61,745 nucleotides of DNA from Phycisphaerales bacterium (GCA_038251595.1 JBBSBC010000001.1:1-61745), one strand, 5' to 3'. Positions 4,638 to 51,946 are shown, counted from the stretch's first letter. Made by a program: numbers and translations. The notes: generated from the letters alone by a model not told the origin.

Positions 4638-6173
4638 ATGGCGGATCGGATGCGGATAGATGGACCAACCAAGGTCTCGGTGGTCGCGTTTGGCGCGATG
4701 GGGTTTTTGGCCGCGCTTGGGGTGGTGGGAGCTGTTGGTACTGGAACATGGGCCACGGTTCAGGTTGGACTGAGCGTGGCATCGGCGGGCGTGTTTCTGC
4801 TGAAGGCGCGTCGGCGCGGCGTGGTGCTGGCGCGGATGGAGCGCAAGGCACGCAGTCTTTTGAAAGTGACGTTGCCGTTTGGCACGGAGCCTGAGCCGGG
4901 GAATGTTGGCCGCGGCGATGAGCCGGCGGATCTGGATGGATTGCGAGCGGCGATCGATGGGCTTGGGAGGCGGGTCGAGGATCAGGTGAAGGAGGTCGCG
5001 AAGAAGACGCGGAATCTTGAGGCCCTGATCGCGGCGATTGATGAGCCACTGCTTGCGACGGATAACGATGAGCGCGTGCTGCTTTGCAATCGGTCGGCGG
5101 AGGCGATCTTCGGCGATTCGATCGGGGCGGGAGGGGGAGGGGCGGTAGAGGGTGCGGAGATTGTGGGGCGGCGGATAAGCGAGGTGTTTACGCACGCGGA
5201 ACTGATCGAAATGCACAGCGCCGCGCGGCGGGGGGAAGTTCGAAGGTCGCGTGTGCCGCTGGTGACACCGCTTGGTCGGCGCGTGTATCAGGTGTCGGCA
5301 TCGCCGGTGCCTTTGGCGTGGGGCGAGGGTGTGTTTGGCGCGGTGATGCTTCTGCGCGATGTGACCGAGCTTGATCATGCGGTGCAGATCAAGTCGGAGT
5401 TTGTGGCGAACGCCTCGCACGAGCTGCGCACGCCGGTGGCGGCCATACGTGGCGCGGCCGAGACGCTGGAGTTGGCGGTGCGTGATGATGTGGTGATGGC
5501 CCAGCGGGTGGCGCGCATGATCGTTGCGCACGCGGGGCGGCTGGAAGAGTTGCTGCGCGACTTGTTGGACCTGACGCGGCTGGAATCACCGGATGTGCCG
5601 CTGCGGATTGAGGCGGTGGACCTTGGTGAGATCGAGCGTTCGCTGCGGATGCTGTTTGAAGGTGTGTGCGCGGAGCGGAACCTGAAGCTGGTGTTTGAGA
5701 TTGATGAGGATCTGGTCGGCGCGATGGGGCTGAAGACTGATCGCAAGTTGTTGATGCTGATTGCGCGGAACCTGGTCGAGAACGCAACGAAGTTTGCGCA
5801 TGAAGATACAGAGGTTCGGATCGCGGTGACGATGGTGGAGGCGGAGATGCCGAGTGCGAGGGGTGTGCCGCACGGAGGTGCGTGGGGCGCGACGCGCGGT
5901 GTGATTCGCTGGGAGGTTTCGGACCGAGGGATTGGCATTCCGCTTGGGCAGCAGGATCGCGTGTTCGAGCGGTTTTATCAGGCCGATGCGGCGCGCACGG
6001 GGAGCGCGAAGCGGGGCACGGGGCTTGGGCTGGCGATCGTGAAGCACGCGGCCAAAGCGCTCGGTGGCCGGGTGGGACTGAAGAGTGTTTGGGGACAGGG
6101 CACGACGGTGTGGGCCGAGATTGCCGTTGAGTTTGCGCGCAGTGGAGAGGAAGGGACCAGGCGGGTGGGCTGA
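4638..6173 (+). CDS. PAS-domain sensor histidine kinase (PhoR-like architecture)
   Basis: N-terminal TM segments and a PAS-like region. The H-box is [23 protein letters not shown]. The HATPase N/G boxes are [16 protein letters not shown] and [11 protein letters not shown]. It lies 28 nt downstream of the regulator gene. Confidence 0.9.
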
Positions 6174-6201: not shown

Positions 6202-7269
6202 TCAATCTGAAGTGTTGCTGAAGTCGTAGCCCTTGATGCCGTTGCGGGTCCAGCGGTAATAGCCGCCGACGATGTCGGCGGGACGACCGCTGAGGGTTGG
6301 CGGATCAAACCCGCGCCAACTGGTGGTGGTGGGGTTGTAGTTGTGTGTGAAGGGGGTCATGTTGGTGGGGTTGTTGGGATCAAATCCGGGGCGCGCTTTG
6401 CCGGAAGTGCAGAGGCGGACCGAACCATCGAAGAAGGCAAGGGGCTGGCGTGCGGTGGGGTAGCCGAACCAGGCCATCTTCTTGGAAGCGTGGCGATCGA
6501 ACTCATCGAAGAAGGCGACCTTCTGCGTGGGAAAGAGGACTTCGTCGAAACGACGCAGGCCCATTTTTGCGAAGGTGCTGTTGTTGGCACTGAGGTAGAA
6601 GAGGTGGTGATCGTTGGGGTCTTGATAGAAGGTGATGGCCGCGCCGACTTTCTGATCGGCCGAATAGGCGGCGGGGACCATCTGGTAGGTTGACCAGTAG
6701 GCGAACATGCGGATGGAAGCTGGGGGCGGAAACTGCGGAACGATGCTGGCGCCAAGAGCCTGGATCTGCGATGGGCGCGTCTTTTGCCAGATCAGCGGCA
6801 GGCGGTCTTCGGGGCAGATCAGACTGGGAGTGGTGGCGTTCTGATCGGCGTAGTGCCCGCCGACCATGAGGACGAGGTGCCAGTAGTTTCGGTCGTAGAC
6901 GCGGCCGTAGGCGCGCGGGAGTTCGGCGGCGTTGTGTCCGCTCATGCGGCGTGCGAAATCGACTGCTTGATCGGCGTGAACATCCATGCGGCGTGTGGCC
7001 TGCGTGGTGGTGAGGTCTGGATAGGCATCGCTGGCCCAACCCGGCTGGGCGGTGAAGTTGCCGATCGAGCCGCGAGAATCGCCGTTGTAGGAATAGAGGG
7101 CGATGGCGAGCTGTCGCATGTTGCTCATGCAGATGTCGGTCCGTGCCGCCTTGCGCGCGCCAGCGAGGCCGGGGAGCAGGATGGCGATTAGCAGCGCGAT
7201 GATGGCGATGACCACCAGCAACTCGATGAGTGTGAAAGCGGCAGCACGGACGATGAGGTGACGATTCAT
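6202..7269 (-). CDS. prepilin-type N-terminal cleavage/methylation domain protein (DUF1559-like pseudopilin)
   Basis: N-terminus [35 protein letters not shown]. The C-terminal FFDGSVR motif is typical of planctomycete DUF1559 proteins. Confidence 0.85.
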
Positions 7270-8109: not shown

Positions 8110-8205
8110 TTGGCGTGTGTCGGCGTGGTTGTTGGCGTGGTTGTTGGCGTGGTTGTTGGCGTGGTTGTTGGCGTGGTTGTTGGGGCGATTGTTGGGGTGG
8201 TTCTG
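8110..8205. repeat. 12-bp tandem repeat GGCGTGGTTGTT: 5 perfect copies at 8122-8181, flanked by 3 degenerate copies
   Basis: Read directly. The array ends at the GGAG Shine-Dalgarno sequence 2 nt before the phoH ATG at 8210. Confidence 0.95.
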
Positions 8206-8209
8206 GAGT

Positions 8210-9385
8210 ATGGCGGGCGTGGAATTCAGCATTAAAGTGCCGCAGGGGGCTGAGCGTGTGACGATGCTCGGCATGGGTGATCGCAACCTGAAGATTATCC
8301 GGGAAGCGCTCGGCGTGCGGGTGCTTGCGCGTGAAGGGCAGGTGCAGGTGTCGGGTGAGCGGGGTCCGGTTGCGGCGGCTCGGAGTGTGCTTGAGCGGCT
8401 GGGTCAGGCGGCTGAGCGCAACGAGCACATGACCAGGCAGCAGGTTCTGGACCTGATCACGCAATCGACGATGGGGCGGGTTGGTGGAGGTGGTGGGGGT
8501 GGTGGGGGTACGGAGGCACCGGTGTTTGGTCGAACCGGGAGCACCGGGCGGCATGAGCGTGATGAGACCGAAGACTGGAACGATGGTGTGGATCAGGGGC
8601 CGCTGTGGGAAGAGCACCTGGATGTGTATGTGGGTGGTCACGCGGTGCGTGCCAAGACGGCGAACCAGCAGCGGTATCTGGATGCGTTGCGGGATAACGA
8701 TCTGGTCTTCGGGATCGGCCCTGCGGGAACGGGCAAGACGTACCTGGCGGTGGCGGCGGCGGTTCATATGTTGAAGCACGAGCGGGTGAAGAAGGTGATC
8801 CTGGTGCGGCCTGCGGTCGAAGCGGGCGAGCGGCTGGGCTTTCTGCCGGGAGACTTGCAGGCGAAGGTGAACCCGTATCTGCGGCCGCTGTTTGATGCGC
8901 TGCACGACATGATGGACTTCGGGACACTGAAGCGGTTCATGTTTAACGATGTGGTGGAAGTTGTGCCGCTGGCGTACATGCGCGGCAGGACGTTGAACCG
9001 AGCGGTGATTATTCTGGATGAGGCGCAGAACACGACGCGCGGGCAGATGCTGATGTTTCTGACGCGGATGGGTCATGGATCAAAGATGATTGTGACGGGC
9101 GATACGACGCAGATCGATCTGCCCGACCCAACCGAGAGCGGGCTGATCGATTCGGTTCGACGATTGCGGCGGGTTCGGGGCATCGGGTTTTGCACGATGG
9201 ATAAGTACGACATTGTGCGACACCGACTGGTGCAGCGGATCGTGGAGGCGTATGCGGGTGATGCGCCGGGTGCGGAGGAGACGTTACAGTCGCGCGAAGT
9301 AGCCGAGTTGGTTGGGAAGATCAGGCCCGGAAGTGGGGAAAGGGCGGAGTTGGCGGACGGATCGCAGACCGATGAAATGAAGTGA
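8210..9385 (+). CDS. phoH: PhoH-like ATPase (YbeZ type, with N-terminal KH-like domain)
   Basis: Walker A is GPAGTGKTYLAVAAAV. Followed by ILVRPAVEAGERLGFLPGDLQAKVNPYLRPLFDAL and VIILDEAQNTT. Contains a poly-Gly insert (G8) at 8478-8509. A GTG at 8117 would add a repeat-encoded (AWLL)5 N-terminus. Confidence 0.9.
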   Translation: MAGVEFSIKVPQGAERVTMLGMGDRNLKIIREALGVRVLAREGQVQVSGERGPVAAARSVLERLGQAAERNEHMTRQQVLDLITQSTMGRVGGGGGGGGGTEAPVFGRTGSTGRHERDETEDWNDGVDQGPLWEEHLDVYVGGHAVRAKTANQQRYLDALRDNDLVFGIGPAGTGKTYLAVAAAVHMLKHERVKKVILVRPAVEAGERLGFLPGDLQAKVNPYLRPLFDALHDMMDFGTLKRFMFNDVVEVVPLAYMRGRTLNRAVIILDEAQNTTRGQMLMFLTRMGHGSKMIVTGDTTQIDLPDPTESGLIDSVRRLRRVRGIGFCTMDKYDIVRHRLVQRIVEAYAGDAPGAEETLQSREVAELVGKIRPGSGERAELADGSQTDEMK

Positions 9386-9448: not shown

Positions 9449-11908
9449 ATGGCGAAGCGAGCGTTGAACAAAGTCGGCGTGTCGAGGTCGCGAACGGATG
9501 ATCTCCGGCGCGAGATCGATGAAGCGATGGGCGGTCGATGGGGGTGGATAGGTGGTGAGGGGTTCGGGCGGATGCTCGGCTCGCGGAACATGCTGCTGGC
9601 GTTGATGATCTGGGGTGGGTTTATTGTGGTGGTCTCGCTGGCGGTGGTGTGGACGCGCGAACAGCCGCAGGTTGCGGTTGGGCGTGTGATGAATCACACG
9701 CGGATCGCGCGGGCTGAGTTTCGTATTGAAGATGACACTGCGACGGAGCAGGCCAAGAACAACACCCGAGCGACGACCGCGCGGGTGTATGTGGAGGTGG
9801 CGGGAATTCTGGAGGAGATCCGGTCATCGCTGGAGAATCTGCCGGAGGTTGCGCTGGGGGTTGATGATCCGGATCGGATCGAGGCGGGGCTGAGGCAGCA
9901 GTTTGGGATTACGCGCGAGACGCTGACCGCGCTTCAGACGCAGATCGTTGAAGGCAAGGCGGCGCGTGAGTGGGTGCAGAAAGTTGATCGGCTGCACAGC
10001 TTGCTGCTGAGGACACCGATCCTGGAGCGCGAGACGTTTCAAGTGGAGCAGACCTCGCAGAACCGCGAGATTGAGCTGAGGTTTGTGCCTGTTGGAGGTG
10101 GCGCAAAGAAGGAACAGGGAACGGGTGGTAAAGAAGGGGTGGGTGTTGGGTGGAACCGGATGGTCGTGAGCACCGCGGGCGCGTTGAACGCGGAGAGCCC
10201 GAGGCTTGACGAAGACTTTCGACAGTTGGCAACAGGGGCCGGGTTTCGCGGGGTGTTGCTTGAGATGGTGGTGAACAGGCTGAAGAACCCGGTGCGGGCG
10301 ACGTATACGTTCGACTCGGCGGCAACATCGGCAAACCAGGACCTCGCGGCGACGGGGGTGGTTCCGGTGATTGTGAAGTATCCGGCGGGAGAAGTGATTT
10401 ATCGGCGCGGGGAGAAGCTGACCGAGACGCAGTTTAAGAAAGTTGAGCAGGCGATGCTGGTTGAGCAGCGTTCGCTGGGCTTCTGGTCGACGTGGGCATC
10501 GCGGCTGGCGGCGATGGGTGTGGTGTGCGGCGTTGCGGCGGCGGCGGCGGGATATACGGTGTTGTTTGTGCCGCGTGCGCGGCGGAACCCGATGCGGATG
10601 CTGGGATTGGCGGGACTGCTGGCGATTGCGACGTTGGCGGGGTGCTGGGCGACGGCGACGAAGCCCGCGCTGATCGTGCTGACGGGGATCGCGCCGACGG
10701 TCTTTGTGACGGCGATATTGGCCATTGCGTATAACCAACGGGTCGCGCTGGCGTATGGGTGTCTGCACGGGGTATTGATGGGGGTTGCGCTCGATCTGCC
10801 GATCGGGATGTACGCGGTGATGGTGGTGGGGGTGGGCGTTGCGGTCTGGCAACTGAAAGAGGTTCGCGATCGTGATGCGCTGATCAAGCTGGGGATCTGC
10901 GAAGGGGTTGCGCTCGCGATTGGTGTGTTTGTGGCGAGCCTGCTGGAACTGCCACCGACGGCCGCGGCGATTCATCAGGGAGGATGGGATGCGCTTTGGG
11001 CGGGGATGGGCGGGTTGCTGGTGAGCGGGGTGGTGTTGTACATTTTGCCAACGCTTGAGCGGGCATTCGGGCTGGTGACGGGGATGACGCTGATCGAACT
11101 GCGTGATCCGAAGCAGCCACTGCTGAGGCAGTTGCAGCAGCGTGCGCCGGGGACGTACAACCATTCGCTGAATGTGGCGAGCCTGGGTGAGAGCGCGGCG
11201 GAGGCGATCGGCGCGGATAGTCTGCTGACGTATGTCGGCGCGTTGTACCACGATATCGGAAAGATGAACAAGCCGGATTACTTTATCGAGAACCAATCGC
11301 CGGGGTTCAACCGGCACGACAAGCTCTCACCGGCGATGAGCCTGCTGGTGATTGTGGGGCACGTCAAGGATGGTTTGGAGTTGGCGCGCGAGTTTAACCT
11401 TCCCAAGCCGCTGCATCACTTTATTGAAGCGCACCACGGAACGACGCTGGTGGTGTATTTCTATCACCGCGCCAAGCGCCGCGCGGAAGAGCAGGCGCGG
11501 GTGGACGGTGAGGATCATCAGGATGCGGAAGTTCCGAGTGAGCTGGAATATCGATATCCTGGGCCGCGACCGAGGACGCGGGAGGCGGCGATTCTGATGA
11601 TCTGCGATGCGGTGGAGAGTGCTGCACGAGCAATGGCGGACCCGACACCGTCAAGGATTGATGCGACGGTGCGGGCGATCGCGAACAAGCGGTTGATGGA
11701 CGGACAGTTTGACGAGTGCGATCTGACGCTGCGCGAACTGAACGTGATCGTGGAGACGGTGACGAGGACGCTGACGAGCATTTATCACGGGCGGATTCAG
11801 TATCCGGGTGGAGGCTCGGTTGAGAGTGGCGTGGTGGAGGCGCGGACAGGGGTTGGATCGGAGGGGGAGAATGTGCCGCGAACGGGCGTGCAGGTCGGGG
11901 GCAGGTGA
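9449..11908 (+). CDS. 7TM-HD membrane phosphohydrolase (PgpH/YqfF-like, HDIG domain)
   Basis: Large extracytoplasmic N-domain and about 7 TM helices. The HD domain reads NHSLNVASL...ALYHDIGK...EAHHGTTLVVYFYHRA. The phoH-pgpH order is a widely conserved pairing. Confidence 0.85.
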   Translation: MAKRALNKVGVSRSRTDDLRREIDEAMGGRWGWIGGEGFGRMLGSRNMLLALMIWGGFIVVVSLAVVWTREQPQVAVGRVMNHTRIARAEFRIEDDTATEQAKNNTRATTARVYVEVAGILEEIRSSLENLPEVALGVDDPDRIEAGLRQQFGITRETLTALQTQIVEGKAAREWVQKVDRLHSLLLRTPILERETFQVEQTSQNREIELRFVPVGGGAKKEQGTGGKEGVGVGWNRMVVSTAGALNAESPRLDEDFRQLATGAGFRGVLLEMVVNRLKNPVRATYTFDSAATSANQDLAATGVVPVIVKYPAGEVIYRRGEKLTETQFKKVEQAMLVEQRSLGFWSTWASRLAAMGVVCGVAAAAAGYTVLFVPRARRNPMRMLGLAGLLAIATLAGCWATATKPALIVLTGIAPTVFVTAILAIAYNQRVALAYGCLHGVLMGVALDLPIGMYAVMVVGVGVAVWQLKEVRDRDALIKLGICEGVALAIGVFVASLLELPPTAAAIHQGGWDALWAGMGGLLVSGVVLYILPTLERAFGLVTGMTLIELRDPKQPLLRQLQQRAPGTYNHSLNVASLGESAAEAIGADSLLTYVGALYHDIGKMNKPDYFIENQSPGFNRHDKLSPAMSLLVIVGHVKDGLELAREFNLPKPLHHFIEAHHGTTLVVYFYHRAKRRAEEQARVDGEDHQDAEVPSELEYRYPGPRPRTREAAILMICDAVESAARAMADPTPSRIDATVRAIANKRLMDGQFDECDLTLRELNVIVETVTRTLTSIYHGRIQYPGGGSVESGVVEARTGVGSEGENVPRTGVQVGGR

Positions 11909-11927
11909 AGGCGAGGATGAAGAGCGG

Positions 11928-13160
11928 TTAGGGAATGTCACGACCTCTGGCACCATCAAGGGTGTGCTGGCCGGGTTCGTAATCGAGACTGTGCACGGGC
12001 ATCATCTCGGGCCCATCACCAGCGGGATAGCCGCGTGCGAAGCGGTTTGCCGGGAGCGCGATGGCGGCACCGTCGGAGAGAGCGGCTTGCCAGACTTGTT
12101 GAACATTTGCTACCTGATTTGCTGGCTGAAACGGATGATGCTCGTTCAGCAAGAGCACTTTTTTGGAGGGAAAGACCACTTCCGCAGGTCGGACGGCGCG
12201 CCACTGTGACAGACCCGTGCGCAGGCGGGGGTTCCAATAGGCGGGGTCGGCGAGGAATGTGCAGTTGTATATGTATGGTGTAGGACCCCCGCGCTGAGAT
12301 GGCGACGTGATAGTATCAAAGTATGTCGGCGGGTAAAGGGAATCATGATAAGGATTTCCGCCGTAATAAGCATCATAGAGTACGTAGTTCCAAAATTTGT
12401 ATCCCCAGAAGTACATAACTGGATAGCTCGATGGCGTTCTGGGTATGAGGATATTTGTTATTTCAATGGTTGGGCGGGTGTAGTAAGGATAGTACTCGCG
12501 GTTGTCACCCTCGTAGAGAGAAAAGATCTGGGCGTGTGAGCGAAGATTGTTGAGTGATACGGCATCGCGGGCGGTGGTGCGCACGGGCGCAAGCGATACA
12601 ATAACGAGACCGACGAGGAGGGCGATCACGGCGATCAACACCATAAGTTCGATGAGGGTGAAAGCTCGTGACCGGGAAATGGAAAGCTGGTGATCAGTCA
12701 GCGGCGGGCTTGTGGAGGTGCGGAGCGTGTGGACCGATCGGCGAGAGCCAAGAATGCCGAAGAGGGCGAGTGCGACCAGAACCGTGTTGCGTAACAGCAA
12801 GTGTTCGCTGAGTCGGTGAAGGTATGCAAACCGTTCGATCATGCCGAGGCAGTTGCAGGTGGGAGGGCGACCTTGCAAGTAGAAGGCGGCGTATGCGATG
12901 GAATATGCCGCGATGAGCATGGTGGTGCTGATCAACGAGAGACGTTGATGCTGGCCAGAGAACCAGAGCCCGGCGAAGAGGAGCTCGATGGCTGGAACAG
13001 CGATCGCAAGGATCGAATCAAAGCCGGGTGCGATACCCCATGTGGCAAGACTCAGACGAAACGCCGGAAGATCGACAAACTTTCCGATGGCAGAGATGGC
13101 CATGAAGATCATGACCAGGTCGGCGGAGCGTCTAGCGACGAATGCGGTCACGGGGTGCAT
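11928..13160 (-). CDS. fusion protein: MauE/DoxX-like 4-TM redox domain plus prepilin-type N-methylation motif/DUF1559-like pseudopilin
   Basis: Residues 1-145 are MauE-like: AISAIGKFVDLPAFRLSL..., PAIELLFAGLWF and a CNCLG motif. An internal SRAFTLIELMVLIAVIALLVGL follows, then a pseudopilin-like body. It is a single uninterrupted ORF. Confidence 0.7.
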   Translation of the reverse strand: MHPVTAFVARRSADLVMIFMAISAIGKFVDLPAFRLSLATWGIAPGFDSILAIAVPAIELLFAGLWFSGQHQRLSLISTTMLIAAYSIAYAAFYLQGRPPTCNCLGMIERFAYLHRLSEHLLLRNTVLVALALFGILGSRRSVHTLRTSTSPPLTDHQLSISRSRAFTLIELMVLIAVIALLVGLVIVSLAPVRTTARDAVSLNNLRSHAQIFSLYEGDNREYYPYYTRPTIEITNILIPRTPSSYPVMYFWGYKFWNYVLYDAYYGGNPYHDSLYPPTYFDTITSPSQRGGPTPYIYNCTFLADPAYWNPRLRTGLSQWRAVRPAEVVFPSKKVLLLNEHHPFQPANQVANVQQVWQAALSDGAAIALPANRFARGYPAGDGPEMMPVHSLDYEPGQHTLDGARGRDIP

Positions 13161-13635
13161 CGGGTTGCTCGGTGGGGAGTTCGGGATTGATCACGGCTGG
13201 TGGTCCTGGACAGGGGAGGGAAAGGGTGTCCACGAACACGGAAGTGCATATCGAGACGCTCGTTTCGCCTTCGTCGCAACCTGTGGCTCCTGCGGGCGGC
13301 TGGTCAATTGACTTACATGACCTTGACGTGCGCAGGCAAGGGACTGAAGTTCCGTAGTTGAGACCTCTGCGACCACTGCCGCCGGCCTTCGGTGGAGATT
13401 GTGCTTGAGTGATGGCCAGGCTTGGAAAGTTTACTGTGTCGCGACAATCCCAAGTGGTGGTGTTGCCCGGTTGGTTGCTGATGCATGTTCTTGGCGATGG
13501 CGCAAAGCAGCAGATCATTGAAGTCACCTGCTCCCAGCAAAGTCCGGAGACGGCCAGGGCGGGGGTTGCGAGGGTGAGTGCAGCCCCGAGAAAGACGCGG
13601 CGGAGCGTTTGAATAGTTGATGGTGAAAGTTTCAT
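13132..13635 (-). CDS. secreted cysteine-rich hypothetical protein (10 Cys in 167 aa)
   Basis: Signal peptide MKLSPSTIQTLRRVFLGAALTLATPALAVSG. Cys residues are scattered through the mature part. It overlaps the downstream MauE-fusion ORF by 29 nt. Confidence 0.55.
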   Translation of the reverse strand: MKLSPSTIQTLRRVFLGAALTLATPALAVSGLCWEQVTSMICCFAPSPRTCISNQPGNTTTWDCRDTVNFPSLAITQAQSPPKAGGSGRRGLNYGTSVPCLRTSRSCKSIDQPPAGATGCDEGETSVSICTSVFVDTLSLPCPGPPAVINPELPTEQPDAPRDRIRR

Positions 13636-13648
13636 GTTGTCAATCTTT

Positions 13649-14878
13649 TCAGTTAAGTTTAGAGGAGGAATGTTGACTCACGCGACGGAGTTTGTACCAG
13701 ACCAGAAAGCAGATGATGGCTCCAGCGGTGGTCCAACCAGCGATACGGAGGAAGGCCGAGGTGCCGCTGTTGGGAGACATGAAGACGGAGTTGATCTCAT
13801 CGATGGTTTCACGACCGTCGGGAAGGTAGCGGGTGGTCTTGCCTGTACGCAGGTCGTTGTAGATCAAGACCTTGACTTCGCCGCGGAACGAGTCTTGGGA
13901 GCCTTGCTTGGGAATATCGAAGGCTCGATCGAACGTTCCATTTGTCTCGGCGGTCGCGCCCTCGAAAATGAATACGTGGTCGAGACGGCCCTCAATACCA
14001 TAGATCTCTGTTCTTTCTGAGAACCACAGATTCAGGATCGGGTCGAGTTTCCAATCTTTAGCAATGGCTACAGGACCCGGCTTGGCAATGGCTGCATTCG
14101 GCGCGGCCTGATCGATTCGTGAGATTCTCTCGGTAAAGCCGCGATTTGCGGTTGCATCCCATCGGCCTGTAACAAGATATTCCCTGGCGGGAGCGTTGCC
14201 TGATGTTGATTTGGTCGTGAGCGTGGCACGCCAATCGCCTTGAGCGTCTGCCTGAAGTGACTCGACCACCACGTCTCTGCGTATCTGTGAAAGTCCACCA
14301 GAACTCATGATGGCCAAGTTTTCAAAGAGTTCACCAACGATGGACGCGAGGTTCTGACCGATGGGGTAGCCTTCGGTGGGGTCGATGATGGTGATGCTGC
14401 CATGATCAAATGAGATGGCGTGTCTGGGGGTGACCACCTTATCCCAGAACGAGTTGGGCGTGAACTCAGGGTCGGTGAAGCTTTCGCTGAGACGCCACGT
14501 TGTGTTGTCTGCTATCCAGGCGGTACGAGGCGTTCGCGTCGGCTGTCCCGCTCGTCGTCGCTGATAGATGCCGAAGACCTGTCGCTCGGGATGGTCGGGG
14601 TGACCCGGCACTTCGCGGGCAAGACGCGCCATTTCCGCTTCACCGGGCCAGCGATGGGTTTCGCGGATCCAAGATACACGATTCTTTCCGTAGTCGGGGA
14701 GTTTGGTAGGCGAAACCAGTTCGGCTTCAAACCATGCTTCGAGGGCGGCTGGTATCGGTTGCTCGGAAGTGCCAGTGCTGGATTGGCCACCTGAACTGGC
14801 CGCAAAACATGCTGGAACAAGCCAAAAAAGAACGATGGCGAGTCGATGATGGTGGAGGGCAGCCCTCTTGCGAAACAT
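13649..14878 (-). CDS. hypothetical secreted protein with C-terminal TM anchor and basic tail
   Basis: The start is taken at MFRKRAALHHHRLAIVLFWLVPACFAASSGG; the ORF extends up to 14944. The C-terminus is AFLRIAGWTTAGAIICFLVWYKLRR. No family recognised. The region is AT-richer than its flanks. Confidence 0.6.
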   Translation of the reverse strand: MFRKRAALHHHRLAIVLFWLVPACFAASSGGQSSTGTSEQPIPAALEAWFEAELVSPTKLPDYGKNRVSWIRETHRWPGEAEMARLAREVPGHPDHPERQVFGIYQRRRAGQPTRTPRTAWIADNTTWRLSESFTDPEFTPNSFWDKVVTPRHAISFDHGSITIIDPTEGYPIGQNLASIVGELFENLAIMSSGGLSQIRRDVVVESLQADAQGDWRATLTTKSTSGNAPAREYLVTGRWDATANRGFTERISRIDQAAPNAAIAKPGPVAIAKDWKLDPILNLWFSERTEIYGIEGRLDHVFIFEGATAETNGTFDRAFDIPKQGSQDSFRGEVKVLIYNDLRTGKTTRYLPDGRETIDEINSVFMSPNSGTSAFLRIAGWTTAGAIICFLVWYKLRRVSQHSSSKLN

Positions 14879-15145
14879 GCAACAAATGGGCGAGCACCGG
14901 CGAGAATGCCGGAACTCACGACTCATCTCCGTGCGTCTCAACACGCGGAGATTGGACTCGGGATTTGTTTCGGAGTGATTCGTAACGATGCACGTCCCAT
15001 CTCAAAGGAGGTGGATGATTTTCAAGTGCATTGCATGGTACCGTCCCCCCCGCCCCCCAGGTCCAACGAAAATTATTAAAATTTTCTGTCAGGTGTAAAG
15101 CTGAGAATGGCATCGATGTTGTCCCGACGACCGGAGGTATGAACT

Positions 15146-16624
15146 TCACGCGCTCGCAAGCGGATTTGGACCGTGAACATGATGTGGCAGCGGCATCGGT
15201 TGGTAGTGCTCATCGAGCACCGCTCGCCACTCATCCAGAGTTGCGACCGCAATGAACCTGCGGCGGACAACTTCTGACTCCGGGTGATGCGAGGCGAAGC
15301 GGATGCCGAACTTGCGCATGAGTTTGCTGGCGTGGCGTTCGCCGTTGAGGGCGGCGGAGAGGCGGAAGTGTTCGTCGAGGACGGCGCGTTGTTCGGGGAT
15401 GGTGGGGACGGTGGGGGGTTCGCCGCGGAGCATCTGGCGTGCCTGGCGGAAGATCCAGGGGTTGCCGATGCAGCCGCGGGCGACGGCGACGGCGGCGACA
15501 CCCGTGTAGCCGATCATGCTGAAGATGTCGTGGACATTCCAGACATCGCCTGAACCAAAGATGAGATTATTTCAATTCTTATGAACGATATCGCGGAGAA
15601 TATCCCACCGGCTGGGTCCGATGTACTTCTGCTGAACAGTGCGGGCGTGGACCGTTGCCCATGAAAAGCCCATGGCGAAGGCGGCCTCGAGAATGCGATC
15701 AAAGTTGGCGGCCATCTCGGGTGTGTCGTCGAAACTGCGCCGGAGCTTGACGGTGCAGGGGATGTGCGAGGGGACGGTCTCGCGCACGGCCTTGAGGATG
15801 CGGATGGCCCCGGCGGGTTCGGCGAGCCAGTGGCCGCCGCGTGCTTTGGATTTGATTTTCTTGACGGGGCAGGCGAGGTTGATGTCGATGGTCTCGAAGG
15901 AGAGATGGTGGGGAGATGAGGTGGTAGGGTGAGTGGGAGCGGAGTGAGAGGGGGAGGAGTCGATCTGGTTGATTTCGTCGATGAGGGTTTCGCAGGTTTC
16001 ATCGAGATCGGAATGCTCGTGCGAGGCGTGAACCCTTCCCGCTGCCCCCTCCCTCTGGGAGGGGGAGCCGGAGCCCCCGAAGATCGGTACGCGGCCGACT
16101 TGCTGGCCGCCGGGCAGACGGAGGTGGACATCGAAGACTTCGGCGAGTTCATCGGGTGAGAGGTGGTCGTAGGCGAGGTGGCGGTAGGCTTTGTCGGTGC
16201 GCAGTCCTTGTTCGGCGACCTTGAGTGCGGAGACGGCCATTTCCTGCGGCTCGCTGCCCATGATCTGGCAGGCGAGGGGATGATCTTCTTCACCACCGGG
16301 GATGTTGTCGTGAAGGTCGCCGAGATCGGCTTTGGTGAATCCGCGGCCGCCGGCGAGGAGGGTGCGATCGAGCAGGGCCTCGGTGACGCAGAAGGGGCAG
16401 CCGTGTCGGCGCGCGATGATGCGCATGGCGGCATCGGAATAGCCGGCGAGACCGGCTTGGAAGAAGGGGGCATCGAAGGTCGGGATGATGGCGCGGATGC
16501 GCGGATCAACCCCACCGGGCCACTTTGCGGCAAGGTCGCGTGCGACCGCCGCGGGGTCGATATGCTCACGACCGGGCGCGATGGCCGGGCTTGGGGGCGT
16601 GGCGTTGTTGCCGTGCTCGCTCAT
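15146..16624 (-). pseudogene. dus: tRNA-dihydrouridine synthase (Dus family) interrupted by an in-frame TGA at 15572-15574
   Basis: Upstream ORF: FFQAGLAGYSDAAMRIIARRHGC..., IDINLACPVKKI, TVKLRRSFDD, ATVHARTVQQKY. The same frame continues after the TGA as NNLIFGSGDVWNVHDIFSMIGYTGVAAVAVARGCIGNPWIF. A low-complexity insertion of about 110 aa precedes IDINLACP. Confidence 0.8.
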
Positions 16625-16776
16625 TCGTGCGATGATAGTGGCGGGTGGCGGGATTGGAGCGAAAGCCGATGCAAGTACAGAGCGAACACAGGGTACACAG
16701 CGATGGCACAGAGGGCAGGGAGAGGGCCAAGGCGGGTGCGATTGGTTGTTCAACCAAGCGTTTTTCTCTGCGGTCT

Positions 16777-32210: not shown

Positions 32211-35200
32211 ATGGTGCGCCGAGTTTGGCGGGAAGGTTGCACCATCGAGACTGATAGCGTGTGCGTTGGTGATGGCACGGGTTGTAGGCGGTGGGGCGTG
32301 AGGGTGGAGTTCAACGAAGGAGCGAGCGCCTTGACCGCGCTGGCCACATCGATCTTTGAGCGGAACCTGCGGGCGCTGTCGCGTACAAGCCCGGATGCCG
32401 CGCGCAAACTGTCCGAGGTCGAGCCGCAGGAGGGTGTGCGCTTCTTTGAAACCGAAGAAGGGGCGCTCAGCGCCGAGACGGGTCGTGGGCAGACCGCGTG
32501 CGCGCTGGCGAGCCGAAGGCGACCGGTCGAGGAGGCGCGCCGCTTGGTGGGTTCGCTGGACCTCGCGGAATCAGCAGTTTTCATCGTCAGCGGGTTCGGG
32601 ATGGGTTATCACGTTGAGTTGCTGGCGCGGAAACTTGGTAAGACGGGCATCGTTGTGGTCTTTGAGCCCGATGTCGCGCTCCTTCGCGCGGTGCTCGACC
32701 GTGTTGATTGCTCGGGTTGGCTGGGTGCGATGAACGTTGCGATTGTCACCGACCCGGACGACCCCGCGCTGATCTCACGGCTGATCGACGGGGTCGAAGG
32801 GCTGGTGGCCATGGGTGTCACGCTGGTTGAGCATCCGGCGGGACGTGGGCGGATCGGTGATCGGGGGCGAAGGTTTCATCAGCAGTTTGCCGATGTCGTG
32901 CGTGCGGTGAAGATGACCGTCATCACCACGATGATGCAGGTCAAGACGACGATGCGGAACCTGACTCAGAATCTGGACCACTACGCGAACAGCCCCGGCA
33001 TTCTGGAACTTAAGGATTGCTGCCGCGGTGCGCCCGCGATTGTGGTGAGCGCGGGGCCGAGTCTGGCACGCAATGTTCATCTGCTCAAAGATCCGTGGGT
33101 CCGCGATCGGTTTGTCATAGTGGCCGTGCAGACGGTGCTGAAGCCACTGCTGGAGCGGGGAATCCGGCCGCACTTTGTGACCGCGCTTGATTATAGCGAG
33201 ATCAGTCGGAGGTTTTATGAAGGGCTCACCACCGCGGATGTGGAAGGTGTGACGCTGGTGGCCGATCCGAAGGTGAATCCGGCGGTACTGGATGCCTGGC
33301 CGGTTGATGCCGACGGAGTGGGGGGCGCGCTGCGTGTGCAGGGGGATCGATACCTTGACAAACTTTTAGGGACTGAACTTGCGAAGTCGAAAGGTGAGTT
33401 GAAGCCGGGTGCCACGGTGGCGCATCTTGCGTATTACCTCGCACGCCACATCGGGTGCGATCCGATCTCGTTGATCGGGCAGGATCTGGGCTTTACCGAT
33501 GGCCAGTACTACGCGGCGGGCGCATCGATCCACAACACGTGGGCCTGTGAACTGAACGAGCTGAACACGCTGGAGATGCTGGAGTGGCAGCGGATCGTGC
33601 GGATGGGGTCGCAGCTCCGGCGCGCGACCGATGTGTTTGGACGCCCGATCTTCACCGATGAGCAGATGGCGACGTACCTCGTGCAGTTTGAGCGCGATTT
33701 CAGGGACGATACGCAGTGCGGGCTTCGCATCATCGATTGCACGGAGGGAGGAGTTCGCAAGCGTCACTCCGAGTCGCGCACGCTGGAAGAGTTTCTCAAT
33801 GAGTTCCGTGATTATGCGCCGCGCCCGGTGCGGATACCTCCGGCAAAGCTTCGACGGGCGAGGGGCTCTGGCGGCGAATCGGCGGGTGGGCAATCGCTTC
33901 GACGGATTGGTGAGCGTCTGACCGAGACGCGGGCCGCCGCGTTTCGAGTGGCTGAGATCAGTCGAAAGACTGAGGGCGTGCTGGCGGAGATCGCCGAGCA
34001 TCAGCACGACCAGGTGCTCGTGAACACGCTGATCAGCAAGACCGAGCGGCTTCGCGATCAGGTGGGTGCGCTTGAGCCTGCGCTCTCGCTATCACATACG
34101 CTCAACCAGACGGGCGCGTTCAATCGCATCCGTTCTGACCGGGCACTTCAGATGGAATCAAACGATGGGGCGCTGGCACCTGTCGAGCGCCAGCGCCGGC
34201 AGGTGGAGCGTGATCGGGAGAATGTGCGGTCACTGGCCGCAGCGGCCGACACGCTGGGCGAGCTGCTTGATGATGCGATCATGACGCTGCGTGGTGGCGC
34301 GAAGATTACCAGAGAGTCGGCCTCGTCGCGACAGAGCATGGCGGTGGATCTTCGATCGGTAATCAGGTCGGGAGATCAGGGAACGCCAGCGCTCAGGCGT
34401 GTCGCGGCGATTGTTCATGTCTACTCAGACCGGAGCGATCTGGCGGATGTGTTGCACAATGGGCTCAACGCGCTGGAATGCACAATCTCACGGCTCGCGC
34501 TCTGCAAGGGGCTGGGCGTAAATGGCGCTGCGAAGACTGCTGCTGCACCCATCGTGGTTGTGACCGACGACATGATGAGGGCCAGGAGCTGGTTGCGGCG
34601 ATTGCCGGAGAACATCGCGATCGAGTTTGTCTCGGCGGGAACAACCGCCGGATCGAGGCGCGACGCGGTGCGATCGGCGCGCATCCTGGCCCGCGAATGC
34701 TGGCGCGGCGGTGTGGCCAACCTGAGTGTGTATGACGAGCATGTCGAACCACAATCACTTCTTGATGCGATGAGCATGTGCCAGCCGCCGATCGACGCGG
34801 CGATGCTGGTTGGCGCGGATTGGTCGTGCGTCGATCCCGTGCTCTGCGATGCGGTTATCGAGCGCCACCTCACCAACCCGCATCAGAGCAGATTTGCCTT
34901 TACGCAGGCGGCACCGGGATTGTGCGGGTGCCTGATCGCGCGCGAGGCTGTCGCAAACCTGCACTCGGCCGCAACGACAGGTGGGAACTTTGTCTCGATC
35001 GGCGGCATACTCGGGTATGTGCCGACTCGACCGACGGTCGATCTGATCAGCCTCCCCGAGTGCGTTTCGGTGCCGGTTTCGGTTCGCGACAGCGGGGAGC
35101 GATTCATCGCCGACTCGCGCCACGGTCGCGAGATGGTCAGGCGTGTGCTGGAGGGAAGAGAGGCAGAGCCGCATGCGGCGGGGCTGCCCGCACACCTTGA

Positions 35201-35870
35201 GCTTGTGGTGGCGCGCGGGTGGGATCGATTGTCGGTCGATGAAGCCCGCCGCGAGATCGAAGCTCTGGCTGAGCGGCGTGAGGATGGCGCGGTGACGATG
35301 CGCGGAGCAGCGATCGTCGGTGACGATCCGCTCTCGCACCCGGACATTCGTCGCTTGTGCGAGCACGCACATCGTCTTGGCCTGGGTGTTCATGTGCGCA
35401 CACCACTCACCGCCGAGGCCGATTGCGGCTGGTTGGTCGAATCGCGCAGTGTTGACATTGTCAGTGTTGATCTTCTGGCCCACACCGAGGATGGATATCG
35501 CGCTATGACGGGACGCGATGGGCTTGTGCGTGTGCGTGAACGGCTTGAGAAACTGATGGACCTTCGTGGTCAGACCGCCGACGGCCTCACCGCCATGACC
35601 GTGCGCGGAGATCCGATCGAGCAGGGTCGAACAACGGCTGCCGCGGGCGGAGAAGCATGGCGTACACCATGGATCGTGCCGCGAATCACGAGGTGCGATG
35701 CGGTGTACTCCGAAGTTGAACCGTTCTATCGCGAATGGTTGTTGCGGTGCGGATGGGCGGTGATTGATCCGCTCGATACGGTGCGCGAGGGCGAGCGCAT
35801 CGCACCTCTGCCTGTTCCCGCATGGGTCGATGGCAAGCGCGCCAAGTCTACGAGGGTGGTGGGTTGTTGA
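32211..35870 (+). CDS. motility-associated factor (Maf/DUF115, MptE-like) glycosyltransferase fused to a SpsF/cytidylyltransferase-like region and a radical-SAM-like domain lacking the CxxxCxxC motif
   Basis: The Maf core is PAIVVSAGPSLARNVHLLKD...FVIVAVQTVLKPLLERGIRPHFVTALDY. The C-terminal VTMRGAAIVGDDPLSHPDIRRLCEHAHRLGLGVHVRTPL...VDIVSVDLLAH resembles a radical-SAM barrel, but VARGWDR occupies the cluster-loop position. The start is uncertain; GTG candidates lie at 32298 and 32304. Confidence 0.7.
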   Translation: MVRRVWREGCTIETDSVCVGDGTGCRRWGVRVEFNEGASALTALATSIFERNLRALSRTSPDAARKLSEVEPQEGVRFFETEEGALSAETGRGQTACALASRRRPVEEARRLVGSLDLAESAVFIVSGFGMGYHVELLARKLGKTGIVVVFEPDVALLRAVLDRVDCSGWLGAMNVAIVTDPDDPALISRLIDGVEGLVAMGVTLVEHPAGRGRIGDRGRRFHQQFADVVRAVKMTVITTMMQVKTTMRNLTQNLDHYANSPGILELKDCCRGAPAIVVSAGPSLARNVHLLKDPWVRDRFVIVAVQTVLKPLLERGIRPHFVTALDYSEISRRFYEGLTTADVEGVTLVADPKVNPAVLDAWPVDADGVGGALRVQGDRYLDKLLGTELAKSKGELKPGATVAHLAYYLARHIGCDPISLIGQDLGFTDGQYYAAGASIHNTWACELNELNTLEMLEWQRIVRMGSQLRRATDVFGRPIFTDEQMATYLVQFERDFRDDTQCGLRIIDCTEGGVRKRHSESRTLEEFLNEFRDYAPRPVRIPPAKLRRARGSGGESAGGQSLRRIGERLTETRAAAFRVAEISRKTEGVLAEIAEHQHDQVLVNTLISKTERLRDQVGALEPALSLSHTLNQTGAFNRIRSDRALQMESNDGALAPVERQRRQVERDRENVRSLAAAADTLGELLDDAIMTLRGGAKITRESASSRQSMAVDLRSVIRSGDQGTPALRRVAAIVHVYSDRSDLADVLHNGLNALECTISRLALCKGLGVNGAAKTAAAPIVVVTDDMMRARSWLRRLPENIAIEFVSAGTTAGSRRDAVRSARILARECWRGGVANLSVYDEHVEPQSLLDAMSMCQPPIDAAMLVGADWSCVDPVLCDAVIERHLTNPHQSRFAFTQAAPGLCGCLIAREAVANLHSAATTGGNFVSIGGILGYVPTRPTVDLISLPECVSVPVSVRDSGERFIADSRHGREMVRRVLEGREAEPHAAGLPAHLELVVARGWDRLSVDEARREIEALAERREDGAVTMRGAAIVGDDPLSHPDIRRLCEHAHRLGLGVHVRTPLTAEADCGWLVESRSVDIVSVDLLAHTEDGYRAMTGRDGLVRVRERLEKLMDLRGQTADGLTAMTVRGDPIEQGRTTAAAGGEAWRTPWIVPRITRCDAVYSEVEPFYREWLLRCGWAVIDPLDTVREGERIAPLPVPAWVDGKRAKSTRVVGC

Positions 35871-36628
35871 ATGGTCGTGGACATGCAATAGCGGTTGTGC
35901 TGGCACGCGGCGGCAGCAAGGGGCTGCCTCGCAAGAATGCGTTGCCAGTCGCCGGACGGGCTTGCATCGAGTGGACACTCGAACATGCTTGTGCCGCCGA
36001 GAGTGTGCATGAAGTGGTGCTCAGCACCGACGATGAAGAGTTGATGTCCATCGGTCATGAGTGGCGCGACCGCGGGGTGGTGGTTGTGCAGCGATCCGCG
36101 CCGCTGGCCAGCGATACCGCGACCATCGACGCGGCCGCTCGCGAAGCGATTGGGCAGTGGGCGAGCAAGGAGGCTGGTCGGAGCGCCGACGGTCGGACGA
36201 TCGTCATTCTTTATGGGAATGTCCCTGTGCGTCCTGCTGGGCTCATCGATCGCGCGGTGCGAATGTTGATCGAGCAGAACGCGGATTCGGTGCAAAGCTA
36301 CTCGCCCGTCGGCAAACATCACCCGTGGTGGACCGCCCGCGTGAGCAGCGAGAGCGGCGAAGTGCGCCCATGGGAGGGTGAAGTCTTGAACCACGGCGTC
36401 TTTCGTCGGCAGGATCTGCCGCCAGCGTTTGTGCCCGATGGCGGCGTTGTTGTCGTCACATATCCGGCACTGATGCTGAAAATGGAAAGTGTGCGGTCGG
36501 GGCCACATGCATTTTTCGGTCGCGCGGACCGGCGTTACGGCGTTATCAATGCAGAGGGCGATGTGGTGGATATTGATACGCGGGCAGACCTGCTCGTGGC
36601 CGAAGCCCTGCTGATGGAGCGTGCGTGA
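35822..36628 (+). CDS. neuA: acylneuraminate (nonulosonate) cytidylyltransferase
   Basis: AIAVVLARGGSKGLPRKNALPVAGRACIEWTLEHA...VVLSTDDEEL. The start probably lies at TTG 35864/35867, overlapping the maf stop. Confidence 0.8.
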   Translation: MGRWQARQVYEGGGLLNGRGHAIAVVLARGGSKGLPRKNALPVAGRACIEWTLEHACAAESVHEVVLSTDDEELMSIGHEWRDRGVVVVQRSAPLASDTATIDAAAREAIGQWASKEAGRSADGRTIVILYGNVPVRPAGLIDRAVRMLIEQNADSVQSYSPVGKHHPWWTARVSSESGEVRPWEGEVLNHGVFRRQDLPPAFVPDGGVVVVTYPALMLKMESVRSGPHAFFGRADRRYGVINAEGDVVDIDTRADLLVAEALLMERA

Positions 36629-37803
36629 TGCGCATCGGTCAACGTCAAATCGGTGTCGGGCAGTCTCCGTACATCATCGCCGAGTTGGGCGTGAACCACG
36701 ACGGGAGCGTTGAGCGTGCTCTCGACATGACCCGCGCCGCGGCCGGGGCAGGCGCGGATGCGGTGAAGCTGCAACTGTTCGAGACCGATCTGTTGATGAG
36801 CAGTGCGGCGAAGCTCGCGGCCTATCAGAAGGCCGCGGGCGAGACGGACCCGGTGGCCATGCTCCGCCGGTTGGAACTGAGCATCGACGACATGGCCCGC
36901 ATCGTCGCGCTTGCCCACGAACTCGACATCCACGCGATCGTCACCGTCTTCAGCGTTGAACTGATGGAGAAGGCCCAGTCGCTCGCGTGGGATGCGTACA
37001 AGATCGCGAGTCCGGACATCGTTCACAAGCCGCTGCTGGAATCGCTCGCGGCGACCGGCAAGCCGATGATTATCAGCACGGGCGCGAGCACGATCGAAGA
37101 GGTGAAGCAGGCCGTAGCGTGGTTGCCAACAGAATCGCGCCCGTCAGGAAGCGGCCGCCACGTCTCGCCGCACGACCGCCTCGCGCTGTTGCAGTGCGTC
37201 AGTTGTTACCCAACACCAGAAGATCGCGCCGAACTCGGCGGCATCGCCGCAATCGCGATTGCCACCGGTCTTCCGACCGGCTATAGCGACCACACGGCGA
37301 CGCACATCACCGGTCGCTATGCCGTCGCCGCTGGTGCAGTGATGCTGGAAAAGCACCTCACCTACGACCGACGCGCCGTAGGCCCGGACCACGCGGCATC
37401 TCTAGAGCCAGACCTGATGCGGAGGTATGTTCTCGAGTCTCGCGCAGCGATAGTCGGCCGACCACTGTCGGTCGAGCACTCAGTTCGAAAAACCTCTGCT
37501 GCGTTGGGTTCAACCGGTGTGTCGGTAAGCAAGGAAAATGGCCGCGATCTCGCGTACATGCTTCAACATGTCGAGCGTCTCAAGCGCGTACTCGACATCG
37601 AACAGGATGTGCGCACCGTCTCACGCCAATCCCTCACCACCTGCCGCGCGTTGCCGCGTGGCCACAGCCTCCGGAGCGAAGACCTTACGTTCAAGCGACC
37701 CGGAACCGGCTTGCTCCCCTATCGCCTCGACGATGTGCTCGGACGCGCACTCACACGCGATGTGGGGGCCGATGTACCGCTGGTTGAGGAGGATGTCTCG
37801 TGA
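36628..37803 (+). CDS. neuB: N-acetylneuraminate/legionaminate/pseudaminate synthase family (NeuB) with C-terminal SAF domain
   Basis: PYIIAELGVNHDGSVERALDMTRAAAGAGADAVKLQLF..., KIASPDIVHKPLLE, GYSDHT. The ATG overlaps the neuA TGA (TGATG). Confidence 0.85.
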   Translation: MRIGQRQIGVGQSPYIIAELGVNHDGSVERALDMTRAAAGAGADAVKLQLFETDLLMSSAAKLAAYQKAAGETDPVAMLRRLELSIDDMARIVALAHELDIHAIVTVFSVELMEKAQSLAWDAYKIASPDIVHKPLLESLAATGKPMIISTGASTIEEVKQAVAWLPTESRPSGSGRHVSPHDRLALLQCVSCYPTPEDRAELGGIAAIAIATGLPTGYSDHTATHITGRYAVAAGAVMLEKHLTYDRRAVGPDHAASLEPDLMRRYVLESRAAIVGRPLSVEHSVRKTSAALGSTGVSVSKENGRDLAYMLQHVERLKRVLDIEQDVRTVSRQSLTTCRALPRGHSLRSEDLTFKRPGTGLLPYRLDDVLGRALTRDVGADVPLVEEDVS

Positions 37804-51847: not shown

Positions 51848-51946
51848 GGTCAACCATGATAAGTCGCCCCGATCAAGTCCGCCGGATCGACCCATGGGCC
51901 CCGGTACCTCCAGGTTCAGCCCGCTCGGCCTGCCAAAGATACCCCT

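Follow-up and report, generated by a model that had tools for sequence, protein, structure and literature searches.

The Locus and the Conservation of Its Genes

We analysed a 61,745-nucleotide stretch of DNA from a Phycisphaerales bacterium (GCA_038251595.1 JBBSBC010000001.1:1-61745), hereafter the window, and within it a compact island of three minus-strand genes, A, B and C, at positions 11,928 to 15,145. Gene A (13649..14878, minus strand) encodes a protein of 409 aa from the ATG at 14878, which is the start in most database copies; an alternative GTG start at 14944 would give 431 aa. Gene B (13132..13635, minus strand) encodes 167 aa and gene C (11928..13160, minus strand) 410 aa, the latter joining a MauE-type membrane domain to a prepilin. 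Between A and B there are 13 nt, and the ends of B and C share 29 nt; this is the packing given in a preliminary description of this DNA.

The trio turned out to be a conserved cassette, found in many divergent contigs with unrelated flanks, and this is the co-occurrence on which the preliminary description had made its interpretation depend. Loci were collected by exact-protein look-ups and one metagenome scan, and their open reading frames (ORFs) were scanned with custom hidden Markov models of A, of the MauE part and of the pilin part; the counts given here refer to those independent loci (n = 16) in which the sequence extends about 2.5 kb or more beyond A on the downstream side. The same pilin follows A on the same strand in 16/16 of them. 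The MauE part is fused to this pilin in nine loci, namely the window (counted together with L091 and L092, two contigs 99.8% identical to it), L001, L003, L007, L088, L093, L101, L103 and L104. It has a gene of its own upstream of the pilin in L090, L100 and L107, the last with a 4-nt overlap between the two genes; it is degenerate in L099 and absent in three of the 16 (L089, L094-96 and L106). A Cys-rich ORF with a signal peptide lies between A and the pilin in all loci but L094-96. On a contig labelled Phycisphaerales UBA1924 (L006), the protein upstream of the fusion is a different one, and a small protein with 10 Cys is encoded nearby. When the flanks were compared, no further gene family common to the loci emerged, the neighbours being unrelated housekeeping genes. 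As far as contig labels and one NCBI name give the taxonomy of carriers, they all point to Phycisphaerae or Phycisphaerales.

A and the pilin form the invariant core of the cassette and are usually accompanied by B; MauE may be fused, separate or absent. Given this variation, oxidative folding looks accessory to a pilin-centred module rather than being its centre. The hypothesis with which we started, a dedicated oxidative-folding or surface-display module, is therefore upheld in the co-occurrence of the genes, in the MauE fusion and in the Cys-rich B, and has to be given up in so far as it placed folding at the centre. The literature that we searched held no description of the cassette, of its two unnamed protein families or of a prepilin with a whole membrane enzyme as its leader, in keeping with the earlier remark that no described system like the trio was known to its author. 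Each of its parts is of a known kind (a MauE domain, a prepilin, a LolA-like fold); the combination is undescribed.

Protein A

Hydropathy and the AlphaFold 2 (AF2) model agree on the layout of A proposed at the outset, that of a 410-430-aa protein with a signal peptide and a C-terminal transmembrane (TM) helix plus KLRR tail: an N-terminal Sec signal sequence precedes a periplasmic domain, which is followed by a TM helix and an Arg-rich tail. The tail anchor (residues ~375-409; 13652..13756, minus strand) combines an LR..GW motif, the TM helix and the KLRR-type basic tail. AF2 draws a helix over residues 375-408, and the tail motif is conserved across the A family. In two relatives, P0045 and P0133, the helix continues to a basic loop and a pilin, which would place the tail of A in the cytoplasm. 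A sorting signal of the exosortase or sortase type (PEP-CTERM, GlyGly-CTERM or LPXTG) was considered for this C-terminus and rejected, as there was no NCBIfam hit at E ≤ 1; because the helix runs on to a cytoplasmic loop and a prepilin in P0045 and P0133, it appears to behave as a plain tail anchor.

A gave no match in Pfam, NCBIfam or PADLOC, and a sequence search of the PDB was also empty. It is not the orphan for which it had been taken: a profile built from three close relatives retrieved a family of 646 clusters at 50% identity among 1.84 billion representatives, 426 of the 646 at E ≤ 1e-10, nearly all of 360-400 aa and matching end to end. Conserved throughout are PDHP (H96), R129, D146, GRW (238-240), W276, D329, R332-G333, D342 and G381-W382, followed by the TM helix and an RxRR tail, and the ectodomain has zero Cys.

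The AF2 model of A has a mean predicted local distance difference test score (pLDDT) of 89.4 and a predicted template modelling score (pTM) of 0.82. Searched with Foldseek, it retrieved LolA3 9tp6 (E = 4.5e-6), the lipoprotein-sorting domain 3bk5, 2yzy, LprF, RseB and MucB, with a Foldseek probability of ~1.0 but with template modelling scores (TM-scores) of only 0.2-0.45; the E-values for LolA3, 3bk5, 2yzy and LprF run from 4.5e-6 to 4.6e-4. We take A to be, as modelled, a distant LolA/RseB-like half-barrel that is tail-anchored in the inner membrane. The low TM-scores of the LolA-like match (0.30 and 0.45), at an identity below 10%, weigh against this assignment. Members of the LolA/LolB/RseB/MucB/LppX-LprG superfamily have an unclosed beta-barrel that binds acyl chains or lipids, and it was their folds that the confident model of A retrieved first. 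A differs from them in its larger size, its extra N-terminal helices, its inner-membrane tail anchor, its invariant His, Arg and Asp residues and the lack of a sequence-family match.

This fold invites another explanation of the whole cassette, in which A would take up a hydrophobic ligand much as LolA, LprG and RseB do (a lipid, the acyl chain of a lipoprotein, or the hydrophobic alpha-1 helix of the pilin itself) and chaperone the extracted pilin, B being a structural partner. The LolA/LprF/RseB type of fold would suit such a role, as would the invariant linkage of A and pilin, the two direct A-pilin fusions and the loci L094-96, with A and pilin and no B between them. It would leave a Cys-rich protein and a disulfide enzyme unexplained in most loci, however, and the fold match is a distant one. 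The invariant polar residues H96, R129, D146, D329, R332 and D342 are also unlike a purely lipid-binding cavity, and we give this hydrophobic-ligand module only a slim chance of being correct.

Protein B

B has a signal peptide followed by 10 Cys, as had been counted before in this 167-aa secreted protein, and its mature part begins near a C-W motif. No match was found in Pfam, NCBIfam or PADLOC, and a profile search returned only 7 database proteins, none of which is functionally named. Counterparts of B lie between A and the pilin in 13 or more loci, in the form of signal-peptide, Cys-rich ORFs of 124-167 aa that gene finders often miss. All of the mature proteins begin C-[WYF], most continuing with CC after 5-10 residues; the number of Cys, counted from this start onwards, is 10 in 8/14 counterparts and 8, 8, 9, 12, 14 and 14 in the rest. 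L090 has two tandem B paralogues, and the B-type ORF of L106 is broken by an in-frame stop. Homology of all these proteins across the loci is plausible; similarity between them is detectable only within subgroups, so that they are too divergent for homology to be proven, a point against the function proposed below. The possibility that B is a lipoprotein was rejected, since positions -3 to -1 before the first Cys are unlike a lipobox in most members.

B is the sole Cys-rich product of the cassette, the pilin domain having one Cys, and it is a candidate substrate of the MauE domain.

The MauE Domain of Protein C

Residues 1-147 of C (12720..13160, minus strand) make up a four-helix, DsbB-like membrane domain. 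The match with the Pfam MauE family (PF07291) scored 65 bits (cut-off 27; E = 1.1e-17) over residues 15-137, in agreement with the domain assigned to C in the preliminary description, and PF07291 was also matched by 7/7 full-length fusion homologues (P0002-P0008), which have the same architecture as C at 22-47% identity. The AF2 model of C has an overall pLDDT of 74, rising to 80-94 in the MauE part, where helices span residues 3-29, 48-67, 72-96 and 105-147. The loop between helices 3 and 4 carries a CXC motif, C102-N-C104, followed by L-G (12849..12857, minus strand). In the alignment of the fusion homologues, C102 and G106 do not vary, and 6/7 sequences have C104; P0005 is missing this second Cys of the motif. 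K27 in helix 1 and E59 in helix 2 are likewise invariant, and the residue after the CXC is Leu instead of the usual Phe in most fusion members.

From the positive-inside pattern we infer that the CXC loop is periplasmic. The same rule, combined with the AF2 helices, would place both the N- and C-termini of MauE and the linker in the cytoplasm and the globular domain of the pilin in the periplasm, a predicted topology that matches what a prepilin needs.

A recent preprint (bioRxiv 10.64898/2026.03.05.709764) reports that MauE proteins of two phyla can stand in for DsbB in E. coli and that both Cys of the periplasmic CXC between TM3 and TM4 are needed for activity. It also describes a highly conserved Lys on TM1 and Glu on TM2 near the predicted quinone site, finds that MauE probably works via a thioredoxin-fold partner, and counts about 8% of MauE entries as fused to a partner of the thioredoxin superfamily (bioRxiv 10.64898/2026.03.05.709764). 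The connection between MauE and disulfide formation drawn in the preliminary description has thus received experimental backing in 2026, in the form of a DsbB-like activity via the CXC, and the idea of oxidative folding is well grounded because MauE has been shown to be a DsbB-like disulfide generator. On prepilin fusions the preprint is silent; its one related figure is a count of "non-thioredoxin fusions" (bioRxiv 10.64898/2026.03.05.709764).

As a separate observation, the only thioredoxin-fold candidate seen in the window is a 563-aa protein with a thioredoxin/TlpA-like domain (50654-52345, minus strand), 37 kb away from the cassette.

The Prepilin Part of Protein C

The MauE domain is followed by a basic linker (residues 148-166) with a pLDDT below 50, predicted to be disordered, and by a predicted prepilin-peptidase site, A166/F167-T-L-I-E171 (12648..12665, minus strand). 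F167, L169 and E171 are invariant in the alignment of the fusion homologues and position -1 is G or A, so that the site reads [G/A]/FTL[IV]E. Position 165 of the family profile was aligned to residue 1 of mature PilA, GspG and PilE (PDB chains), with E-values down to 1.9e-11. The mature pilin-like part, residues 167-410 (11931..12662, minus strand), has a hydrophobic alpha-1 and then a globular domain of ~190 aa; AF2 models the alpha-1 helix over residues 169-219 (~50 residues) and strands in a mixed domain after it. The globular domain terminates in HTLDGxRGRD, and the signature of the pilin family consists of ADPxFWN..TRxGPxQWR and HTxDGxRGRD. The fusion of MauE to a pseudopilin, reported in the preliminary description, is real and recurs across loci.

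Searches with prepilin profiles gave a mixed picture for the window protein itself. The N_methyl motif (PF07963), which the preliminary description had listed for a profile search, was found at E = 1.5e-3, and its score of 18.4 bits fell short of the Pfam cut-off of 21.2; likewise, TIGR02532 scored 13, under its threshold of 16.3. All family members (11/11) matched the N_methyl/prepilin motif at E ≤ 0.1, the best of them at 1.7e-6, and C weakly matched the N-termini of GspG and GspH in the NCBIfam search. The DUF1559/SBP_bac_10 family (PF07596), listed there as well, did not match C at E ≤ 1, and neither did TIGR04294; 1/11 relatives gave a match, at E = 0.04. A search of PDB folds with the model of C returned only generic helical bundles at E > 0.2, and a contig scan with C as the query was swamped by the generic pilin word AFTLIELM and recovered no fusion relatives.

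The leader of C, of ~165-166 residues, contains four TM helices, and only its last ~20 residues correspond to the usual basic disordered stretch. The pilin domain is found in other settings as well. It is a stand-alone protein in L011, L089, L094-96, L106 and L107, and in P0045 and P0133 A is fused directly to it, the tail-anchor helix being followed by a basic loop of ~18 aa and then by G/FTL[IT]E, so that an entire tail-anchored protein of 330-380 aa takes the place of the leader. F+1 and E+5 are kept in all pilin forms. Taken together, the split, MauE-less and A-pilin forms suggest that the pilin accepts any N-terminal partner that ends in the cytoplasm, which fits cleavage. Strom and Lory reportedly found Gly at -1 to be key for prepilin cleavage, with Ala as the sole substitution allowing some cleavage, and a partly cleavable Ala would fit the alternation of G and A seen at this position.

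Alternatively, C might stay uncleaved, as an enzyme with five TM helices that uses its pilin-like periplasmic domain to dock the substrate or partner of MauE, with no filament or secretion machinery involved. Such a protein would be comparable to the VKOR-thioredoxin and MauE-thioredoxin fusions (the latter being the roughly 8% of MauE entries mentioned above, which make a periplasmic partner domain on MauE a known design), and the Ala at -1 and the sub-threshold N_methyl score of the window protein are in line with it, as is the lack of type IV filament genes among the window ORFs scanned. We nevertheless find it unlikely. The pilin domain has an ordinary short leader and no MauE in L011, L089, L094-96 and L106, is a separate gene after MauE in L107 and L090, and in P0045 and P0133 has A as its fusion partner. 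Moreover, F+1, L+3 and E+5 are invariant in the register of a mature pilin, a conservation not easily accounted for unless the protein is processed or interacts as pilins do.

We also noticed a second prepilin-type gene 5 kb from the cassette (6202-7269, minus strand), which encodes 355 aa and matches PF07963 at E = 4.8e-5.

Composition, Mobility and Strain Variation

The island is flanked by PhoH (8117-9385) and a PgpH-type 7TM-HD protein (9449-11908) on one side and by Dus (15146-16753, minus strand) on the other, the neighbours that the preliminary description had named phoH-pgpH and dus. Its hand counts of G+C in three 60-nt lines (22/60, 32/60 and 45/60) were exact when recounted; over the window such lines hold on average 36.7 +/- 3.9 G+C, and those of the island 33.6. 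The island has a GC content of 0.560, compared with 0.611 overall in the window; it is essentially the lowest-GC 3.2-kb stretch there, being equalled or undercut by just 0.3% of sliding windows of that length. The GC content at third codon positions (GC3) is 0.60 in A, 0.58 in B and 0.635 in C, each under the minimum (0.641) of the 47 other window ORFs, whose mean is 0.729 (sd 0.043), which gives z = -2.2 to -3.4 for the cassette genes. The tetranucleotide distance of the island falls in the top 0.4% of the window. All three analyses agree with the compositional departure from the flanks claimed in the preliminary description; the deviation is real but modest, about 5 GC points.

A dip in GC3 at the cassette was seen in three genomes: 0.58-0.64 vs 0.73 in the window, 0.70-0.76 vs 0.85-0.92 for the neighbours in L001, and 0.55-0.59 vs 0.71-0.89 in L003. 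Low GC3 together with unrelated flanks in different genomes suggests that the cassette moves horizontally. Two observations count against such a spread: the cassette of L007 shows no dip, and no mobility gene or repeat lies beside the cassette. In the window sequence, our search at the cassette found no integrase and no flanking direct repeats, just as had been noted before. Carriage by phages or plasmids was rejected, given that no cassette relatives were found on viral contigs or plasmids.

The near-identical contig L092 allowed us to compare strains. Within the cassette (13516-14789 and codon 107 of B) the two sequences have 5 non-synonymous and 3 synonymous differences; 5.8 kb of flanks hold 8 that are synonymous, 1 in intergenic DNA, 1 amino-acid change and a stop-codon site. 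These counts are too small for a test. One of the amino-acid differences in the cassette affects B, in which Cys107 (codon at 13316) is Phe in the 99.8%-identical strain. The stop-codon site concerns dus, which is interrupted in the window by an in-frame TGA at 15572-15574; the codon in L092 is CCA (Pro), and the TGA is either a nonsense mutation in the window strain or an assembly error.

These differences bear on two further explanations. The cassette might be a module of competition or defence, with B as a secreted disulfide-rich toxin or bacteriocin-like peptide, A as an immunity or holding protein, the pilin coupling export and MauE providing folding. An excess of non-synonymous changes in A and B (5/8 cassette differences) between near-identical strains is what such a module might show, and so are an accessory cassette of deviant composition, unrelated flanks and patchy occurrence, and a B that evolves fast yet keeps its Cys pattern. 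L090 even joins its two B paralogues to a Cap15-like gene of the effector type known from cyclic-oligonucleotide-based antiphage signalling systems (CBASS), located at 4806-5429 of that locus, two genes downstream of the cassette. We still regard a defence role as improbable, considering the small polymorphism counts, the lack of any PADLOC match for A, B or C at E ≤ 1, the lack of relatives on viral contigs or plasmids and the dissimilarity of B to known toxin families. A known anti-phage defence system was rejected on the same PADLOC result.

The other explanation would reduce the island to a patch of unusual composition whose ORFs are decaying or due to chance and have no function in common. 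The low GC3, the change from Cys to Phe in B and the in-frame stop in the neighbouring dus could be read in this way. Order and orientation are kept in more than 16 loci at 22-47% protein identity, however, with invariant motifs and confident structure models, and the comparative sequence data contradict a reading as non-functional DNA, to which we assign a negligible probability.

A Proposed Function for the Cassette

We propose that the locus serves the cell envelope of Phycisphaerae-type Planctomycetota as an accessory, self-contained cassette with a specialised pilin-like protein at its core. The full account set out below, including the oxidation, cleavage and display or export of B, stands in our judgement at about an even chance. 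Its observed part is that A, B and the pilin are encoded side by side from locus to locus, with MauE usually on the N-terminus of the pilin. C would insert into the membrane via five TM helices, the MauE termini lying in the cytoplasm. The host prepilin peptidase would then cut between A166 and F167, releasing the MauE enzyme with its four helices and leaving a mature pilin that has the usual N-terminal Phe and Glu5; the arguments for this step are the topology, the conserved cleavage motif and the existence of split and alternative-fusion forms. The MauE part would act like DsbB, passing electrons from periplasmic thiols via C102/C104 to the quinone pool, and would thereby make the approximately five disulfides of B, either directly or via a host DsbA-like protein. 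Here we draw on the published activity of MauE and on the conserved CXC, Lys and Glu.

Oxidised B might next be held or escorted by the globular domain of the pilin and by tail-anchored A, which is the weakest step, and it might then be displayed on, or pushed out by, the host type II secretion or type IV pilus machinery. The steps that follow the oxidation of B are the weakest part of the account, and the function of the cassette as a whole (oxidation of B, its display or its export) is something that we infer from the nature of its parts.

Several observations weigh against this proposal. The absence of MauE in three of the 16 loci, together with the missing second Cys of the CXC in P0005, shows that the module can do without oxidation by the MauE domain. 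No thioredoxin-fold partner is encoded in the cassette, although MauE probably works via one, and no prepilin peptidase, secretin or assembly ATPase was found among the ~50 window ORFs. Cleavage is a prediction, the window protein having Ala and not Gly at -1 and an N_methyl score under the cut-off, and we know of no precedent for a prepilin leader of ~165 aa with four TM helices. The replacement of Cys107 of B by Phe in so close a strain and the distant nature of the LolA-like match of A have to be counted on the same side.

A bolder reading can also be considered. In it the prepilin peptidase would be a polyprotein processor, for which a complete four-TM DsbB-like oxidase (or, in other members, a complete tail-anchored LolA-like protein) serves as the leader of a pilin and is freed as a working membrane protein. 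Together with the five-disulfide protein, this would constitute a new filament-dependent system of cargo export or display, with its own oxidative folding, widespread in Phycisphaerae and moving horizontally. We put this reading forward tentatively, with the odds somewhat against it.

Comparison with Known Systems

MauE and MauD serve the maturation of MauA, the 12-Cys small subunit of methylamine dehydrogenase, and the cassette is similar to mau in that a MauE-type domain is encoded beside a small secreted Cys-rich protein. The likeness extends to the domain itself, C having PF07291, four TM helices, the CXC between TM3 and TM4 followed by x-Gly and, as probable counterparts of the conserved Lys and Glu of MauE, an invariant Lys on helix 1 and Glu on helix 2. 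In contrast to MauE, C has Leu for the usual Phe after the CXC, and the enzyme is fused upstream of a prepilin; in contrast to mau, the cassette is without MauA, MauB, MauD and MauG and without a thioredoxin-fold partner. An identification as a mau operon was rejected, with A and B matching no Pfam or NCBIfam family and no mau genes present among the window ORFs scanned.

With type IV pilins and type II secretion system (T2SS) pseudopilins, C shares the [G/A]/F-x-L-x-E motif, a hydrophobic alpha-1 of ~50 residues and a globular C-terminal domain. The leader sets it apart, being a four-TM enzyme or a whole tail-anchored protein in the cassette vs 6-30 residues in usual pilins, and so does the globular domain, which matches no solved pilin, the window protein also scoring below threshold in Pfam. 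The DUF1559/PF07596 and H-X9-DG (TIGR04294) proteins of the Planctomycetes-Verrucomicrobia-Chlamydiae (PVC) bacteria resemble it in their phylum-level setting, in the N-terminal prepilin motif and in a large C-terminal domain with a motif of the DGS[AV] type close to its end, and the nearest non-fusion matches of C carry PF07596. The cassette pilin differs from them in lacking a match to either profile and the H-X9 spacing, and in having a signature of its own.

T2SS cargo is folded and disulfide-bonded before export. Some T2SS substrates of Acinetobacter have dedicated membrane-associated chaperones (LipA/LipB and CpaA/CpaB; PMC4713064), and lipase-specific foldases are helpers of a similar sort. 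The cassette has in common with these pairs a secreted protein encoded beside a membrane-tethered periplasmic helper and reliance on a filament machinery of type II or type IV, which for B is a prediction. As differences, the T2SS chaperones are N-terminally anchored and have a fold unrelated to that of A, and their operons are without a pilin or a disulfide enzyme. By analogy of function, the cassette comes closest to a T2SS cargo that is accompanied by a membrane-bound chaperone of its own (PMC4713064).

The cassette may be of interest beyond its own biology. It offers a first tractable case for the hundreds of unexplained pilin-like genes of PVC bacteria, with fixed partners in the form of a cargo-like protein, a helper and an enzyme. 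For MauE, shown to be a general disulfide generator only in 2026, B is a natural and genetically linked candidate substrate. Should the fusion prove to be cleaved, prepilin peptidases would have a wider range of substrates than is known, from short leaders up to whole polytopic proteins. Lastly, two sizeable protein families that have no Pfam or NCBIfam model come into view: A (646 clusters at 50%) and B, with its C[WYF]...CC start and mostly 10 Cys.

Other Features of the Window

At the right border of the island, the AT palindrome at 15068-15086 noted in the preliminary description is present in the sequence. The REP-like half-copy reported at 15041-15058 had to be rejected, since the C-rich run (15045-15058) is unique in the window. 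A C-rich run upstream of A (15040-15057) has an 83%-complementary partner at 15395-15412, 337 nt away and inside dus. A candidate sigma-70-like promoter, TTTACA-16-AATAAT (15072..15099, minus strand), lies upstream of A and overlaps the AT palindrome. It matches 10/12 positions and is the only promoter-like site in 11700-15300; no functional promoter can be claimed, as one site does not exceed the shuffle expectation (mean 1.5) and its position is the sole argument.

Elsewhere in the window, a 200-aa ORF with a GC3 of 0.86 and no Pfam match coincides with a local GC peak of 0.716 at 58001-58645. A series of genes of the kind usual in making and transferring a nonulosonic (sialic-like) acid occupies 32211-38996 on the plus strand; its products are an MptE-like protein of 1219 aa, a cytidylyltransferase, NeuB and a UDP-GlcNAc 2-epimerase. 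The GC skew of the plus strand is +0.2 to +0.4 over ~4-20 kb, regardless of gene strand, and becomes negative after ~45 kb; the cumulative skew peaks near 44-45 kb, and this switch may be related to replication.

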